Source: a virus
Taxonomy: Duplodnaviria > Heunggongvirae > Uroviricota > Caudoviricetes
Strand: one strand, 5' to 3'
IMG/VR virus record: IMGVR_UViG_2690316131_000020
DNA length: 8,206 nt
This document shows, piece after piece, positions 1-8,206 of this stretch. A model generated the notes under the pieces. That model did not search any database. It was given only the letters and a program-made list of their open reading frames with translations, and was not told the origin of the DNA. Every line of letters begins with the position of its first letter. Position 1 is the first letter of the stretch. The translations under genes were made by a program, and so were the position numbers.

Positions 1-942
1 CTAAATAGGCTGATTCGATGTGTTTACGGGAAAAAAATCGGCCCAGATCCGCGAAATTTTAATCAGCGAGTCAGCTTGGGAAGAAATGACCTGCTTATTC
101 GCACCTTCCCTAACCGCTCCTGATTCGGTTTTTATTACCGCCTCATCAGTTGGAGTTATAACCGTGGCTTCAACGTTAATAATCAGCTTTTGAGCGTCTA
201 TCAGCATCATGCGATCCGCCTGTTCGCTCACAATTACCGGTATTCTCAAAAGCTCTATCTGCCAGAACTCAGCATTAGTAAGCTGTAAGGCGTTTTCTAC
301 GGGCAAGATTAGCGACGACGTGGCAAGCGTGTTACCGTTCGCTATGTGCTTTTTGAAAAGCTCTATGAAGTTTTCGGCCTCATCAGCACCATTAAGCACG
401 CCCTCAGGGGATACGCCCGCCAACTCCTGGTCACTGGAAAGAAATTTTTTATCTATTTCTTTCACCGATTCCGATGTGATCAAGTCTCTGATCGCTGAAT
501 TGGTACCAGGGGTGCTAAATTTGATTAGCTCGTTATTCAGCATCACAATAGCGCCGAGTTTGTACAGTTTTAGCGAGCTTTCGCTTACTTCTCCCCCTTT
601 TACTGGGATTTCTTCGGCCTCTTTAAGCCATTTACTCCCCTTGCCTGATATTGATTGCAATTTTGCGCCAAAGGGAAGATTAAGCGCACTACTGATTAAC
701 TTGCCAGGTACAGACTGCGAAAAAATATACCCGCCCAGCTCTCTTGCTATCGGCTCAGCCACCAGCGACGGAAGGTTATCCGTGTTCATTCCTGCTACTA
801 CGGATTTTTCAAGGAATAACGAGACAGCCGGATCATTTCTTTTCGTCATCTCTATAGCGTCAGCATGGCTAAATTTACACGATGCCAGCACGCTGGCGGC
901 GCGAACTGCTGACACGCCTTTCATGTTTTTACAGATCATCAT
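1..942 (-). CDS. Putative major capsid protein, HK97-like fold (313 aa); family assignment tentative
   Basis: Complete ORF with TAG stop at 1-3 and ATG at 940-942, preceded by a strong SD (AGGAGGAGGAAG directly upstream). It lies downstream of the terS-like gene. The segment KEIDKKFLSSDQELAGVSPEGVLNG resembles the conserved FL-GDG-G-P-G-L region of HK97-family capsid proteins, and size and composition fit. No Walker A motif, so TerL is unlikely. Confidence 0.5.
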   Translation of the reverse strand: MMICKNMKGVSAVRAASVLASCKFSHADAIEMTKRNDPAVSLFLEKSVVAGMNTDNLPSLVAEPIARELGGYIFSQSVPGKLISSALNLPFGAKLQSISGKGSKWLKEAEEIPVKGGEVSESSLKLYKLGAIVMLNNELIKFSTPGTNSAIRDLITSESVKEIDKKFLSSDQELAGVSPEGVLNGADEAENFIELFKKHIANGNTLATSSLILPVENALQLTNAEFWQIELLRIPVIVSEQADRMMLIDAQKLIINVEATVITPTDEAVIKTESGAVREGANKQVISSQADSLIKISRIWADFFPVNTSNQPI

Positions 943-2453: not shown

Positions 2454-2657
2454 TCCCCACTACTCCCCACTTTTGCTCCCCACTTTTTGAAATTACCCAC
2501 CGTCTCCCCACCTCTTTTTTTTGTGATTCTAACGTTATGTTTTTCAATATGTTTTTTACTCCCCACTTTTTTGGGTATATACAGGTGGGAAAGTGGGTAA
2601 TTATGTTTCAATTTTGTTAAATTCCCCACTCCCCCCACTTTTACTCCCCACTTTTTA
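2453..2657. repeat. Iteron array flanking an AT-rich stretch: candidate replication origin of the element
   Basis: About 9 direct copies of (T)CCCCAC(TTTT) (cores at 2455, 2465, 2477, 2495 degenerate, 2507, 2561, 2624, 2633, 2646) plus inverted copies at 2584-2597 (GGTGGGAAAGTGGG). They flank an AT-rich segment at about 2513-2557 that includes a T8 run. The array starts at the 3' end of the replication initiator gene, as in SaPI/PICI-type origins. Confidence 0.6.
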
Positions 2658-4055
2658 CAGCGGGCGCACGTCATCACCGTCAATAACGATTACGCCATCA
2701 TTTTCCAGCTTGTACAGCCAGCGCCGGAAGTGCTTCATCTCATACCCCAGCTTTTTCATATCGTCGCGGAGAAGGGCGATAGTGCACGCCTCCCCGTGTG
2801 CTGTTCGTGTTCTGATGCACTGCCATAGCGCGGCGTGATTCTCCGTCTTGTTCCCTGCCTCCTCGATGCGCTCCAGTTCAACGGGAGGGCGCGGCTTATC
2901 CACCACCACCAGCGACGTGATTAACTCCCCGTCAGCGTCGGTAAAAAGCTCCACCACGCGTAAGTCATATGCTGCTTCTTTGAGTTCCTCCGCGTCCTTC
3001 ATTTTGGTACATGAGATAACCAGCGCTTCGCTGCCTGCGTCCTCCCTGCGTATCCGGTATTCGGCGTCCAGTGATGCACGAAATGCACTGGAACCACGCG
3101 CCCCCTTTGTTTCATCCTTGCCGGAATGGTGAACCACCAGCACCGTTGCCCCTGTGCGCCGTTTCAGTTCGTCACACCCACGGATAAACGCCCCCATATC
3201 ACGGGAATCATTTTCATCATTGCCGCCAAAGCAGCGCGCCAGCGTATCCAGAATAATCATTCGAACCGGTTTACCCGTTTCCCGTTCCACCTGACGGGCA
3301 GCGATAACCATTTCCTCAACATCAAGCGGGGCAGCCGGAAAGATGGGACGGTTTACCAGATACAGATTTTTCACCTGCTCATCGTGCACAACCTCCCAGG
3401 CTTTTACACGACGCGGAACACCTATACCGCCTTCACCAACCACATAGAGAACCGCACCATGTGCAACCCTGCTGCCTCCCCACTGGCGACCAGTGGCAAC
3501 ATGGCACGCCCACGATCCGGCAAGGAATGATTTATAGGACCCGCTAGCCCCGTATATGCTGCATAGCGATACCGCCGGAATAATCCCCTTAACCACGTAA
3601 TCCAGTTGCGTGTCGTATCCGGTAGATCCAACGCTCATCGGTAGCGTGGTTTTTCGCTGGTGGTTTTTTTCTTCCGCCGGCTCTTTCCCGCGCACCCGTT
3701 CCAGGTATTCGCGCCAGTTCTCCCGCATATGGCTGTGCATCCCTTCGGGGTAATAATTCGCATCAGTTACACCCGCCGCCGCCAGCTTGTGCGCAATGGC
3801 ATTAATATTTGATGGCCTGATGTGGCCTGCCTTGTACAGCCGGACACAATAGCGCCCCTCGTCGATGATTCTCAGGTCTGCCAGTTCATCCAGTTGATCA
3901 TCAGCCAGCACAACGGGAGGCACATTATCGCCAGCCAGTCGCCCGTCCTGTTCCTGCCACTGTTTCGCATGTGCCCAGGCATCACTACCCGCAAAAATAA
4001 TGACTTCGGTCATCTTGTCGTAAGGCTGTTTTTTTAAGTTCGGTGCGCTTTTCAT
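2655..4055 (-). CDS. Replication initiator / helicase-like protein (466 aa): RecA-fold RepA-type (AAA_25-like) ATPase core, N-terminal domain of uncertain type, C-terminal winged-helix-like tail
   Basis: Walker A GASGSYKS, Walker B-like RMIILDTLARCF, and VLVVHHSGKD typical of RepA / DnaB-like loader ATPases. ATG at 4053-4055 with AGGGG SD (6 nt spacer). ATGA overlap with the upstream 99 aa ORF. The iteron origin follows immediately downstream. Confidence 0.85.
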   Translation of the reverse strand: MKSAPNLKKQPYDKMTEVIIFAGSDAWAHAKQWQEQDGRLAGDNVPPVVLADDQLDELADLRIIDEGRYCVRLYKAGHIRPSNINAIAHKLAAAGVTDANYYPEGMHSHMRENWREYLERVRGKEPAEEKNHQRKTTLPMSVGSTGYDTQLDYVVKGIIPAVSLCSIYGASGSYKSFLAGSWACHVATGRQWGGSRVAHGAVLYVVGEGGIGVPRRVKAWEVVHDEQVKNLYLVNRPIFPAAPLDVEEMVIAARQVERETGKPVRMIILDTLARCFGGNDENDSRDMGAFIRGCDELKRRTGATVLVVHHSGKDETKGARGSSAFRASLDAEYRIRREDAGSEALVISCTKMKDAEELKEAAYDLRVVELFTDADGELITSLVVVDKPRPPVELERIEEAGNKTENHAALWQCIRTRTAHGEACTIALLRDDMKKLGYEMKHFRRWLYKLENDGVIVIDGDDVRPL

Positions 4056-4351
4056 TTCTTGCCCCTGAATCCGTTAACCATGGTTTTCAGCTTCTGGATG
4101 TTTGCCCGTGCCCTGGCGTTGCTGGTGGGCACGTTATGCGGCGCGGTCTGTACCAGAGAAAAATCACGCCGGAACTGATAAACAGGCATCACGCAATCAT
4201 ATTCGTAACCTTCACGGCGGTAAGTTACGCACCGTCCCGCCACGCCCTTAATCATTACCGTGCCGCCGTACTGGTCGCGGTAAATATCACCGCGCATAAA
4301 TTTAGGGTGAGTGTTGCCACTGGCAGTTAAGCCAGAATATTTAAGTTTCAT
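4052..4351 (-). CDS. Hypothetical protein (99 aa), translationally coupled to the replication initiator
   Basis: ATG at 4349-4351 with GGAGA SD (about 10 nt spacer). Its stop overlaps the rep start (ATGA). Motif DIYRDQYGGTVMIKGVAGRCVTYRREGYEYDCVMPVYQF; family not identified. Confidence 0.6.
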   Translation of the reverse strand: MKLKYSGLTASGNTHPKFMRGDIYRDQYGGTVMIKGVAGRCVTYRREGYEYDCVMPVYQFRRDFSLVQTAPHNVPTSNARARANIQKLKTMVNGFRGKK

Positions 4352-4356
4352 TATTT

Positions 4357-4591
4357 TTATTCTCCGGTGTGCTGTTCGTTATATCTGTCGTGCAATGTCT
4401 CTATTTCCTGCAACTCATTTATTACAGGCTCAAGAAGCGTTATTAATGATGTAATAATCCGCGTTTTTTTTTGCATTACGTTCATTATCGCCAAAGGATT
4501 CAAGGCACATCCGCAATATTTCGTACATACCTTCAGCGTAAGCAAGGGCACTAAATGCGCGGTCTATTGTTTCAAGATAAATATCACGCAT
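4357..4591 (-). CDS. Small protein encoded in two overlapping frames joined at an A9 tract: frame 1 from ATG 4591 ends at 4430 (53 aa); the +1 frame continues to a stop at 4357
   Basis: ATG at 4589-4591 with GGGGA SD (5 nt spacer) gives MRDIYLETIDRAFSALAYAEGMYEILRMCLESFGDNERNAKKNADYYIINNAS. The overlapping frame (...QKKTRIITSLITLLEPVINELQEIETLHDRYNEQHTGE) lacks a good start but ends 5 nt before the next gene's ATG. The T9/A9 run is at 4464-4472. Confidence 0.35.
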
Positions 4592-4592
4592 A

Positions 4593-4814
4593 TTAATCCC
4601 CGTCCGTTGTTTTTCTTAAAACAGCTTCTGTCACGAAATCAGCATAGTTAGCGGCAATATCAAGAATATTTAGCCCTGTACCTCTGTGCTCATCAGTGCA
4701 AAGAAAGAAAAAAGCCACCCGCATAATTTCAGATATTGACGAAAGCGCATCAGCCGCATCATCAGGAACGCCGGAAAATTCTTGTTTCAGGGAATTAAAA
4801 CGATCATCACGCAT
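4593..4814 (-). CDS. Small hypothetical protein (73 aa, MRDDRFNSLKQEF...)
   Basis: ATG at 4812-4814 overlapping the stop of the upstream ORF (ATGCGTGA), with a G-rich SD-like run upstream. The track ORF was trimmed to this start. Confidence 0.45.
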   Translation of the reverse strand: MRDDRFNSLKQEFSGVPDDAADALSSISEIMRVAFFFLCTDEHRGTGLNILDIAANYADFVTEAVLRKTTDGD

Positions 4815-5028
4815 AACCCCCCCCATTTTCACAATCAGCAACAAGAATATTTTTAGCGTCATTCAGCGACCGCGTTGCGATGTATCGGATACATTCCAGG
4901 GCGAACGTTGTCCGGTCTTTCTGTTCTTCTCCCTGCGCAAGCTCTGCCGTGCATTCAATATCAATAAGCGCGTGCATCAGCGTAGTGAGCGCGGCGGCGG
5001 CTGCGTCCGGTGTGGTTTTATTGCACAT
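4807..5028 (-). CDS. Small hypothetical protein (73 aa, MCNKTTPDAAAAALTTLMHALIDIECTAELAQ...)
   Basis: ATG at 5026-5028 with a strong SD (AGGAGG, 6 nt spacer). Overlaps the 3' end of the upstream small ORF by 11 nt. Confidence 0.5.
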   Translation of the reverse strand: MCNKTTPDAAAAALTTLMHALIDIECTAELAQGEEQKDRTTFALECIRYIATRSLNDAKNILVADCENGGGYA

Positions 5029-5209
5029 GGCACACCTCCTGACGAATACGGGCGGCGAATACAGCAACACAACCGGACGGGCAACGGCTACGTGCTTCGC
5101 GTTCCGTCCAGGCGGTTACGTGGATGATTTGATGTTCTGACGCGCCAAAGATGATAAAGCGCCAGAGAAAGGCGGTTTGAGAATGTACAAGGGTAGGGAT
5201 AGTAGCCAT
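5018..5209 (-). CDS. Small protein, copy A of a tandem paralogous pair (63 aa, MATIPTLVHSQTAFLWRFIIFGASEHQIIHVTAWTE...)
   Basis: ATG at 5207-5209 with a strong SD (AGGAGG, 8 nt spacer). The N-terminal 15-20 codons are paralogous to the ORF starting at 5578, with differences mostly at third codon positions. It is the 3' part of the long 409-codon track ORF. Confidence 0.55.
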   Translation of the reverse strand: MATIPTLVHSQTAFLWRFIIFGASEHQIIHVTAWTEREARSRCPSGCVAVFAARIRQEVCHVQ

Positions 5210-5369
5210 GTTGGCAGCCTCCTCAGTGTGGTTAAGATAACCGCCACCGGAAACGCCAATTTCGCTGGTGGCGGACTGTACAGGGTTGGCGTAACCGGAC
5301 ACTGAAGAAACCGGCGCGGATTGCTCCGCCCCCGTACAGCCCACCATTGATAAGGTGTGACTATGCGGC

Positions 5370-5395
5370 ACAAAAAAACACGCGGGGCGCGTGTT
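5370..5395 (-). terminator. Intrinsic terminator-like hairpin plus U7 (minus strand), inside the stop-free frame between copies B and A
   Basis: On the minus strand: stem ACACGCG / CGCGUGU with loop CCC, followed by 7 U (the complement of the plus-strand A7 at 5372-5378). Confidence 0.4.
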
Positions 5396-5578
5396 ATGCG
5401 CTTCAGTTTTGCCCAGGACGCCAATCCCGGCACCCGTTTTATGAGGTGCGCGGGAATCATAGCTATTTTCGACACTGGCGATCAACTGGTTTTTTTCTCC
5501 GATATTCAGGGCCAGAAAACGCCACACAAAGGCCGTTTGTGTGTGTACAAGGTGTGGTATATGATTTACGGCAACCAT
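5396..5578 (-). other. Copy B of the tandem paralogous leader ORF (MVAVNHIPHLVHTQTAFVWRFLALNIGEKNQLIASVEN...); no in-frame stop before copy A
   Basis: ATG at 5576-5578 with AGGAG SD (5 nt spacer). Paralogous to copy A. The frame stays open through a terminator-like hairpin into copy A, so its real 3' end and coding status are unresolved. Confidence 0.3.
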
Positions 5579-5666
5579 AACGGCTCCTAGTTTACGTTGT
5601 TGGTTAGACGCCCCGTATGTGTTCCCAGCACTGCGGGGCGTTGATTTTTGTGTAATGGCAAGTACA

Positions 5667-5711
5667 ATGGTAATTACCATGTAGGTATAGTAATGAAGGG
5701 TAATTACCATG
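5667..5711. promoter_or_regulatory. Two palindromic operator-like sites in the divergent control region: ATGGTAATTACCAT (5667-5680, perfect 14 bp palindrome) and AGGGTAATTACCAT (5697-5710), with a -10-like TATAGT at 5686-5691
   Basis: The perfect palindrome is repeated 30 bp downstream, where it overlaps the start codon of the Arc-like gene. An AAGGG SD lies 8 nt before that ATG. The sites sit between the plus-strand RHH gene and the minus-strand leader ORFs. Confidence 0.5.
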
Positions 5712-5882
5712 TCAACACCATTAGAAAAACGTTCGCCTCCATACCAAATGCGATTACCGGAAGACTTCAGAGCGCAGCTAGAAGAAGCAGCTAAGGCCGA
5801 TGGCGACACATCTTTAGCCACTTGGATTAAACGCGTTCTCCGCAAAGAATTACAGCAACGCGGCATAGAACCCAAAGGATAA
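5709..5882 (+). CDS. Arc/MetJ-type ribbon-helix-helix DNA-binding protein (57 aa), candidate repressor
   Basis: Below the ORF-track cutoff; found by manual translation: MSTPLEKRSPPYQMRLPEDFRAQLEEAAKADGDTSLATWIKRVLRKELQQRGIEPKG. The RLPE-D/E-L...EAA...G-x-T/S...I...L pattern is typical of Arc-like RHH domains. An in-frame stop lies just upstream at 5694, and the palindromic operators overlap its promoter and start. Confidence 0.7.
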   Translation: MSTPLEKRSPPYQMRLPEDFRAQLEEAAKADGDTSLATWIKRVLRKELQQRGIEPKG

Positions 5883-5924
5883 AAACTATCAGCGCCGTGG
5901 TGTGAGGTATTACGGCGCATTGCT

Positions 5925-6113
5925 ATGCAGGACAACACAATGACCGATAAAGAATTGACCAAAACATTATCACCGGCACGGAAAAGACGGCGCAGAAAGA
6001 TAGAGCATGAATCAGAAAGATTCGCGCCATGTGCTTTTGCCCTTGAGCAATTCCTTAAAGAGTACAGGGAAAAGCGCTCATTGCAGGTATGGCAACGAAC
6101 TGAACCAGACTGA
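5925..6113 (+). CDS. Hypothetical small basic protein (62 aa); weak call
   Basis: ATG ORF downstream of the Arc-like gene and upstream of the terminator at 6209-6235, but with no convincing SD. The antisense frame is part of the rejected 409-codon ORF. Confidence 0.25.
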   Translation: MQDNTMTDKELTKTLSPARKRRRRKIEHESERFAPCAFALEQFLKEYREKRSLQVWQRTEPD

Positions 6114-6208
6114 TTGCATTGCCCACCAGCCTGATAGCGGCTATCATCCCCGTGCTTATGTTTGGGATCACATACACATAAGGCGCAGCGGGTTAATTGT
6201 TCAGAAAG

Positions 6209-6235
6209 GCGGCTCCATATCGGGGCCGCTTTTTT
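6209..6235. terminator. Intrinsic terminator, probably bidirectional, between the convergent plus-strand RHH operon and minus-strand alpA
   Basis: Stem GCGGCUCC / GGGGCCGC (8 bp with one G-U pair), loop AUAUC, then T6 on the plus strand. On the minus strand the same hairpin is followed by CUUUCU. It lies about 30 nt downstream of the alpA stop. Confidence 0.6.
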
Positions 6236-6261
6236 CGTGTTTGTCATATCTGTGATACCCG

Positions 6262-6468
6262 TTAAGCAGCCGTTCCGCGTGCTTCCTCTTCGCGTTCTTT
6301 CTGCCAGGACAACACATCATCCTCATACCATCCGCGACGGCGTAAACCAACGCGAAAACCCTGCGGAAATTCTCCGGCGTTGATCATGCTTTGCAGCGTG
6401 CTGTCTGCCTTGATGTGGATAATTTTTTTTACTTCCTGGCGAAAGATAATTTTTCTGATTGCTTCCAT
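6262..6468 (-). CDS. alpA: AlpA-family phage transcriptional regulator / excisionase-like HTH protein (68 aa)
   Basis: Motif ...FRQEVKKIIHIKADSTLQSMINAGEFPQGFRVGLRRRGWYEDDVLSWQ matches the AlpA family signature (G-K/E-FP...R..GW.E.D...W). ATG at 6466-6468 with AAGGT SD. Positioned two genes from a P4-type integrase. Confidence 0.85.
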   Translation of the reverse strand: MEAIRKIIFRQEVKKIIHIKADSTLQSMINAGEFPQGFRVGLRRRGWYEDDVLSWQKEREEEARGTAA

Positions 6469-6964: not shown

Positions 6965-8206
6965 CTACACGGCTCGGATACCCCTTTTACCACTGGCGAG
7001 GGTTACGCCCGTCGCCGCAGCCTCGACAAATTCGCCCCACCAGCGCATCAGCACGATGCGTTTTTCTATGTAGTTGCTCCGGTTGTATGCCCGTCTAACT
7101 TCGTTGGTGTCGACGTGGGCAAGTGCCGCCTCTATTACGTCCGGCTCGAATCCTTCCTCGTTCGCTGCTGTGCTGAATATGGCGCGTAATCCATGAGACA
7201 CCAGCACGCCAGCGAATCCCATACGCCGCAATGCTGCGTTAGCTGTCTGGCTGTTCATCGGCTGCTGTGGGTCTTTCAGACTTGGGAAAACGTAATTGCG
7301 GTGGTGGCTGATTGGTTTCATGGCCTCCAGCACCGCCATAGCCTGACCGGAAAGCGGGATAACGTGATCCCTGCGCATCTTCATGCGTCCGGCAGGTATC
7401 GTCCATTGCTTCGCGTCCAGGTTGATTTCATCCCACCGCGTTGATGACGCTTCGGCGGGACGGGTTACGGTCAGTAACTGCCATTCAATCAGTAATCTGG
7501 TCTGCCGTTCTGTTGCCGATACTGATAAAGCCTGCATAAGCTCGGGCAGCTGTTCGGGGCGGATTGTTGGCATATGTTTTTTTACAGGTGAGGGAAACGC
7601 CTTACGCACATTCATAGCCGGATTGGCATCAATCAGCCCACTGTTGGCGGCGTAATCCATTACCTCATTAACGCGCTGTAAAACCCGCTTGAGTGTTTCC
7701 AGGTTGCCGCGCTCCTTGATGGGGGTAAGCACTTCAACGAACCTTCGGGCGGTGAGGGTATCTATTGGCGTGTTGCCGATGAACGGGAATACATATTTAT
7801 CCAGCGAACGCCAGATGTCTTTAATCGTGTTGGGGGCCAGATTCTGGCTGATTTTCACCTGGTACCATGCCGCCGCCACATTTTCGAACGTGTTCCCTTG
7901 TCTTCGGGCCTCTGTCTCTCTTTTTTGCCTCTCGTGGTCCTGCGGGTCAGTTCCGGCACTGATTAACGTCCTGTACTCGCTACGGCGTTTTCTGGCATCA
8001 GCCAGGGAAACATCTTCAAGCGATCCAAAACTCAGCAATATTCTTTTTTTGTCCGATGGTCGGTAGTAGGAAAATCTCCAGAGTTTTGATCCAGACGGTT
8101 TGACCAGGAGAAAAAGCCCTCCGCCGTCCTGCAGGGTGTACTCCTTTTGCGCTGGTCTGGCTGCTTTGATCTGCACTGTGGTTAATGGGTGTGTTTTTCT
8201 CGCCAT
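6965..8206 (-). CDS. int: Tyrosine recombinase / integrase, P4-like family (413 aa)
   Basis: N-terminal arm-binding-type region (TLQDGGGLFLLVKPSGSKLWRFSYY). C-terminal catalytic motifs HGLRA and LAHVDTNEVRRAYNRSNY (H-x-x-R and catalytic Tyr). ATG at 8204-8206 is the last triplet of the window, so its upstream signals are not visible and a longer N-terminus cannot be excluded. Confidence 0.9.
   Translation of the reverse strand: MARKTHPLTTVQIKAARPAQKEYTLQDGGGLFLLVKPSGSKLWRFSYYRPSDKKRILLSFGSLEDVSLADARKRRSEYRTLISAGTDPQDHERQKRETEARRQGNTFENVAAAWYQVKISQNLAPNTIKDIWRSLDKYVFPFIGNTPIDTLTARRFVEVLTPIKERGNLETLKRVLQRVNEVMDYAANSGLIDANPAMNVRKAFPSPVKKHMPTIRPEQLPELMQALSVSATERQTRLLIEWQLLTVTRPAEASSTRWDEINLDAKQWTIPAGRMKMRRDHVIPLSGQAMAVLEAMKPISHHRNYVFPSLKDPQQPMNSQTANAALRRMGFAGVLVSHGLRAIFSTAANEEGFEPDVIEAALAHVDTNEVRRAYNRSNYIEKRIVLMRWWGEFVEAAATGVTLASGKRGIRAV

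Follow-up and report, generated by a model that had tools for sequence, protein, structure and literature searches.

Do two overlapping reading frames that meet at a run of nine adenines make two products from one small gene, or are they the remains of a single gene that has been broken? The question arises at a locus in the middle of an 8,206-nt window, by which we mean the whole stretch of DNA that was analysed; it corresponds, in reverse-complement orientation, to bases 1-8206 of contig CYDD01000010.1 (GCA_001284925.1) and covers positions 1386-9592 of the locus that we call L006. A preliminary description, made from the sequence, had proposed that the two frames belong together and had left three readings side by side, namely a homopolymer sequencing error, a phase-variable or slippage-prone site, and genuine production of two isoforms. 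We consider that the window probably carries a non-programmed +1A frameshift allele of a conserved 77-aa gene (phrog_2196), at a slippage-prone A8 tract. The elements of the locus, all on the minus strand, are as follows.

4601-4597, minus strand: GGGGA, a Shine-Dalgarno-like sequence 5 nt upstream of the ATG at 4591, read from the sequence
4595-4593, minus strand: TAA of the upstream gene, one base ahead of the ATG at 4591
4591..4430, minus strand: 5' ORF of 53 aa with an ATG start, from the ORF reading of the window
4464-4472, minus strand: A9 run (T9 on the plus strand), the frameshift site; intact orthologues have A8
4464..4357, minus strand: 3' part of the gene in the +1 frame, 35 codons (T43-E77) plus TAA
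4432-4430, minus strand: TGA, the stop codon of the 53-aa ORF, read from the sequence
4365-4362, minus strand: GGAG of the DUF4222 gene, inside the end of the 77-aa reading frame

Two halves of one 77-aa gene

When the sequence was read again, all that had been described for the frame with the ATG and the Shine-Dalgarno-like sequence, from its start at 4591 to its stop at 4430, held true. Residues 1-42 of the 53-aa ORF are native and reach from helix 1 through the turn into the beginning of helix 2; the remaining 11 aa, NADYYIINNAS, are an out-of-frame tail. On the minus strand the overlapping frame stays open from 4551 to the TAA at 4359-4357. This stop ends 5 nt before the ATG (4351-4349) of the DUF4222 gene and falls within that gene's ribosome-binding region (GGAG at 4365-4362), just as had been noted. 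The 3' part at 4464..4357 holds most of helix 2 together with the most conserved stretch of the family, and it is fully intact. The two frames part at the A9/T9 run at 4464-4472, which is the sole homopolymer of nine or more bases in the 8.2-kb window, and removal of one A gives a continuous 77-aa ORF (MRDIYLETIDRAFSALAYAEGMYEILRMCLESFGDNERNAKKTRIITSLITLLEPVINELQEIETLHDRYNEQHTGE). The junction peptide of the restored product reads ..NAKKTRIITSL or ..NAKKKTRIITSL.

The restored sequence is not hypothetical, as a look-up in the protein collection found an exact copy of the 77 aa on 542 contigs. A search for homologues found 440, of which 120 were listed, and almost every one of these 120 has a length of exactly 77 aa. 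Against phrog_2196, the restored protein covers profile positions 1-74 of 74 (E = 1.4e-30). Judged by sequence comparison, the match to recorded proteins is far beyond chance. Both ORF pieces align colinearly and completely with full-length, single-ORF homologues, and KKTRIITSL, which had been predicted as the fusion peptide, is exactly what intact orthologues encode. The earlier suggestion that the two frames are halves of one 77-aa gene, split by one extra A, is thus borne out by the intact orthologues.

The gene region is found in 982 of 5426 complete E. coli genomes. The closest of these is NZ_CP027355 (99.5% identity over 601 nt), in which the tract is A8 and the gene is annotated as an intact CDS of 234 nt. 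The extra A is the sole indel in 261 alignment columns between the window and this genome, and within the gene the two sequences differ by that A and one SNP, and by nothing else. The codons of the A8 tract, GCA AAA AAA ACG, are read as A K K T and are a feature of one sub-clade. Other clades have DKQKSR, DVRKAR or DVKNAR at the position of the tract, where the DNA run is interrupted (ACAAAAAT), and most of the family is without the A run. Since relatives have either A8 in frame or an interrupted run, A8 is the normal state and the window carries a +1A frameshift allele. The pattern that had been named in advance as speaking against a broken gene, that is, A9 and a conserved stop as the rule among relatives, was not seen.

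The family itself is narrow, as HMMER, run exhaustively against 1.84 billion cluster representatives, found no more than 8 representatives that belong to it. A Pfam search of the 77-aa protein gave no match above threshold, and a PHROGs search gave only phrog_2196, a family to which no function is assigned. A separate observation concerns a 78-aa database protein (P0164), which is a chimera of an N-terminal part from the upstream gene (MRDDRFNSL..., 4593-4814 in the window) and the conserved C-terminal helix of the 77-aa gene (LLEPVIMELQEIDLLHDRYKEQHTGE, 4357-4430 in the window); it implies an in-frame deletion that fused both genes in some island.

The consequence of the break can be judged from a predicted structure. 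An AlphaFold2 model of the 77-aa protein, built with a 58-sequence alignment, is an antiparallel two-helix hairpin with helices at 2-32 and 37-74 joined by a GDNE turn (mean pLDDT 92.4, pTM 0.76). A Foldseek search of this model against the PDB returned generic helical hairpins only, none of them at E <= 0.001. The A tract codes for residues 40-43, at the start of helix 2, and 17 of the 28 invariant columns in the family alignment fall after the break. The 53-aa product keeps helix 1, and nearly all of helix 2 is swapped for 11 unrelated residues. As almost all of helix 2 is lost together with the most conserved residues, loss of function is likely, and from the model and the conservation we infer that the 53-aa product is probably non-functional. 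The frameshifted reading also terminates 78 nt ahead of the DUF4222 start (stop 4432-4430, ATG 4351), compared with 5 nt normally. This early stop may weaken translational coupling to DUF4222, which retains its own GGAG.

Tract-length alleles across genomes

The length of the homopolymer was compared in related islands, as the preliminary description had proposed, and was found to be mostly A8, with rarer A7 and A9. Complete E. coli genomes with the run, of which 60 were listed, have A8 in 58 cases, A9 in one (NZ_CP027573) and A7 in one (NZ_CP022279); PGAP tags the gene as 'frameshifted' in both of the latter. Counted by exact product, the intact A8 form is the majority, with 542 contigs, compared with 5-15 for A9 and at least 35 for A7. 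Pattern scans of metagenome and IMG/VR contigs gave eight A8, one A7 and no A9, and exact look-ups in the protein collection for A5, A6, A10 and A11 alleles found none. The A7 product is 48 aa long, ends in ..NAKKRGLLHH and occurs in 53 index blocks of the collection. The A7 allele is widespread, in many island contexts, and it is found on three N-terminal protein backbones, A9 being found on two. The two look-up tools disagree (5 or 15 contigs for A9; 35 contigs or 53 index blocks for A7), so allele frequencies are rough. At this rough level, A7 and A9 both circulate at 3-10% beside the dominant A8, in several island backgrounds. The out-of-frame 35-codon tail is intact and consensus-like in 21 of the 21 A7 or A9 loci that could be assessed (L014, in which the contig end cuts the tail, was left out), and this persistence of the tail points to recent events. 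The idea of a slippage-prone site is therefore supported in one specific form, as a recurrent A7/A8/A9 polymorphism of the DNA.

Two other A8 tracts in the same type of island, both coding and on the minus strand, served as controls: one in alpA (6423-6430) and one in terS (1568-1575). Among the 60 listed complete genomes, a length change was seen in 2/60 for the tract of the split gene, 1/60 for alpA and 0/60 for terS, which with such small samples is a weak test. The alpA variant is NZ_CP031922, which matches the 89-nt query over just 88 nt and may represent an alpA frameshift; the terS tract had no length variant among the 60 matches listed. These counts give no sign that the tract is more mutable than any other A8 run. 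In draft data variants are somewhat more frequent, for which weak selection on an accessory gene is as good an explanation as any.

The island and its early operon

The neighbourhood of the split gene was annotated from the window as follows.

8206..6965, minus strand: P4-type integrase (Pfam Phage_integrase)
6468..6262, minus strand: AlpA-like regulator (Pfam Phage_AlpA, weak match)
5709-5882, plus strand: 57-aa ORF, Arc-like ribbon-helix-helix repressor (phrog_228, E = 1.5e-6), divergent from the operon
5449..5373, minus strand: isrK (Rfam RF01394, 66 bits, above the gathering score)
5351..5264, minus strand: C4 antisense RNA (Rfam RF01695, 77.6 bits, above the gathering score)
about 5209..5018, minus strand: Icd-like ORF, directly downstream of both RNAs
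4817-4824, minus strand: G8 homopolymer (C8 on the plus strand), length-variable, in the same operon
4814..4593, minus strand: upstream gene of 73 aa (MRDDRFNSL..., phrog_24341), in the same operon
4351..4052, minus strand: DUF4222 protein of 99 aa, the next gene downstream
4055..2655, minus strand: RepA-type AAA_25 helicase, following DUF4222
1-942, minus strand: start of a capsid-like gene (weak Phage_capsid match), inside which the window and the source contig end

By its gene content, the host element is a phage satellite of the PICI or cf-PICI type. It shares with the PICI and cf-PICI of Enterobacteriaceae (PMC10085698) a P4-type integrase, AlpA, a RepA-type replication module, TerS and an HK97-type capsid gene. 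The cf-PICI markers portal, head-tail adaptor/connector and TerL would, if present, lie beyond the end of the window for this copy, and no tail or lysis genes were found within the 8.2 kb. The relative in NZ_CP027355 lies in a complete cf-PICI whose insertion site is tqsA. That island has capsid, protease, portal, connectors, HNH, TerS and TerL, and its packaging module is arranged differently from that of the window.

The early operon runs in the order isrK-like RNA, C4-like RNA, icd-like gene, two 73-aa genes, split gene, DUF4222 and RepA-type helicase; beyond the helicase lie small ORFs, TerS (Terminase_2) and the start of the capsid gene. We take the isrK and C4 RNAs and the Icd-like ORF to resemble the immI (c4-icd-ant) arrangement of phage P1, and with such a layout the split gene would belong to an early operon controlled by antisense RNA. 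The 57-aa ORF at 5709-5882 is a candidate satellite repressor. A 409-aa minus-strand ORF at 5018..6247, which overlaps both the 57-aa ORF and the RNA genes, looks spurious and was set aside. The papers found on DUF4222 had nothing in their titles and abstracts on the function of this operon.

The G tract lies at the 8-nt overlap of the two 73-aa ORFs (..CENGGGYA* / MRDDRFNSL..), just upstream of the split gene. Among related loci it is G8 in 7 and G9 in 5, and one G9 locus (L008) is otherwise identical to a G8 locus (L007) over 742 aligned nt. G9 turns the tail of the upstream ORF into ..GGGLCVMIVLIP*. A single family, phrog_2512 (154 aa), covers both 73-aa ORFs, and in NZ_CP027573 PGAP calls the two of them one 'frameshifted' gene.

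Explanations of the ninth A and their meaning

The simplest doubt about the locus is that the true sequence is A8, with the ninth A a homopolymer miscall and the gene intact. The break does fall precisely in a homopolymer, and the gene of the nearest relative differs from that of the window by the extra A and one SNP alone. One of the two frameshifted complete genomes has an adjacent gene flagged as frameshifted too, which would fit an indel-prone assembly, and both genomes could themselves contain homopolymer assembly errors. However, the exact 53-aa product (P0121) is found on at least 15 contigs, all of which have A9 in the DNA. Isolate assemblies at NCBI, Logan assemblies of public runs and metagenome assemblies at ENA all contribute such contigs, so that different projects, assemblers, sample types and island contexts are represented. 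The island backgrounds of A9 vary in the integrase (409 aa or 413 aa), in the replication gene (RepA-type helicase or D5-type primase) and in the adjoining module (SSB/PerC/Phage_cap_E or TerS/capsid). The haplotype of the window differs from the A8-bearing locus of NZ_CP027355 (L001) at 2 of 745 positions and from another A9 haplotype at 59 of 742, and a metagenome scaffold (L012) carries the identical 745-nt haplotype, A9 included. The 53-aa product is also held in two separate NCBI protein records, and no other gene in the window looks frameshifted compared with its relatives. Since the same A9 recurs across such a number of independent assemblies, metagenomes among them, an isolated miscall is unlikely, and we infer that the allele is probably real. 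The sequencing error that had been raised at the outset is conceivable in principle, but we judge it unlikely. The gene sequence of the A9 carriers is identical, so recombination could have spread a single event across these backgrounds, as an alternative to independent origins.

If the ninth A is real, it might be put to use, either by transcriptional slippage or by ribosomal frameshifting, which would decode A9 into useful isoforms of 53 aa and 77-78 aa. Bacterial RNA polymerase slips efficiently at runs of nine A or T, mostly by insertion (review, PMC5009743). Precedents for productive transcriptional slippage include the A9 of Thermus dnaX, the T9 of Shigella mxiE, the A9 of IS elements and the A11 of Citrobacter tssM, and some disrupted ORFs regain their frame by such slippage (PMC1088944, PMC5009743, PMC4256274). 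As at the dnaX, mxiE, IS and tssM sites, a 9-A-type sense run here joins overlapping frames, and realignment could restore a long product. In addition, the A9 holds an A_AAA_AAA heptamer, and the RNA downstream folds better than its shuffles.

4395-4462, minus strand: two predicted RNA hairpins past the A run (MFE -16.6 kcal/mol; z = -3.06 compared with shuffles)

Homologues in the known slippage systems, however, keep both the run and the two-frame layout, and each of the two products has a use, whereas members of the present family are normally single ORFs with A8 or with no run. Rescue of the frame in this case takes one A fewer or two more in the RNA, unlike in those systems, and in an E. 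coli reporter study no deletion slippage by RNA polymerase was detected on poly(A) runs, the longest of those tried being 8 (PMC6260861); a paper on nonprogrammed frameshift suppression (PMC10861913) offered no figures that could be applied to A runs. A -1 ribosomal frameshift on the heptamer was considered and rejected, as the -1 frame dead-ends in ..KKKRGLLHH* and the conserved tail lies in the +1 frame. A stimulatory RNA structure was rejected as well: the predicted hairpins start 1-2 nt and ~35 nt past the run, compared with the usual 5-9 nt, and sit in invariant coding sequence. This region codes for the invariant LITLLEPVINELQEI segment, so the structure is inseparable from coding constraint and covariation is untestable. 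By analogy with the known sites, slippage by RNA polymerase that drops one A or adds two, or a ribosomal +1 slip, could yield a little full-length or +Lys protein. Genuine production of two isoforms, as had been suggested, is unsupported, since neither the run nor the two-ORF layout is conserved in the family, and we hold programmed recoding to be very improbable indeed.

A different use for the tract is suggested by simple-sequence contingency loci, in which phase variation arises by slipped-strand mispairing. The A tract might be a selected, reversible ON/OFF contingency switch, and the upstream G8/G9 tract may act likewise. As in contingency loci, the tract differs by one base among related strains and toggles the frame. 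Closely related islands carry A7, A8 or A9 on backbones that are the same or nearly so, and a second length-variable homopolymer (G8 or G9) is present in the operon. The out-of-frame tail has stayed intact throughout, as it should if OFF alleles can revert. Compared with contingency loci, however, the tract is short, one length is dominant (~90% or more of alleles are A8, with one-base changes only), and most members of the family are without the run, so the tract is not conserved. Its variability is no greater than that of the control A8 tracts of the same island, though the samples compared are small. By our own reasoning, an A8 is also the expected chance product of two A-flanked AAA lysine codons under E. 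coli codon usage. We therefore regard a selected switch at this tract as quite improbable. A fuller version, in which the A8 and the upstream G8/G9 tracts form a selected switch in the early, immI-like PICI/cf-PICI operon, turning the hairpin protein ON or OFF, with slippage at A9 giving a low tunable dose, strikes us as a little more doubtful again. If such a switch did operate, it would diversify satellite induction, replication or helper-phage interference within the host population.

The ordinary frameshift allele that we prefer can be described in a few steps. In the intact state, A8 codes for Ala-Lys-Lys-Thr at the start of the predicted second helix. The change from A8 to A9 most likely arose when the strands slipped and mispaired as the DNA was replicated. 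With A9, a ribosome that starts at the normal ATG leaves the frame after Lys42 and stops at 4430, and the outcome is a 53-aa protein that lacks nearly all of helix 2 and is probably non-functional. The tract is a recurrent indel site, at which the A7 and A9 events are recent. This kind of variant is already known, and annotation pipelines flag the same gene in NZ_CP027573 (A9) and NZ_CP022279 (A7). It is like the homopolymer pseudogenes that PGAP labels 'frameshifted' and the 9A/9T 'authentic frameshift' genes of E. coli (Baranov et al. 2005, PMC1088944), in which the gain or loss of one base in an A run has divided an ORF that other strains keep single and intact. There is no substantive difference from the 'authentic frameshift' genes; the gene here is an accessory gene of a satellite.

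The general significance of the finding is little, and its consequences are mainly practical. In annotation, the 53-aa 'putative prophage protein' and the unannotated frame downstream of it should be read as one frameshifted copy of a 77-aa gene. Owing to the A7/A8/A9 polymorphism, one family will come apart into spurious short proteins in pangenome and gene-presence analyses. For the biology of the satellite, the frequent inactivation of the gene suggests that it is dispensable while the satellite is chromosomal, and this dispensability is a small clue for work on the protein of the cf-PICI/PICI early operon.
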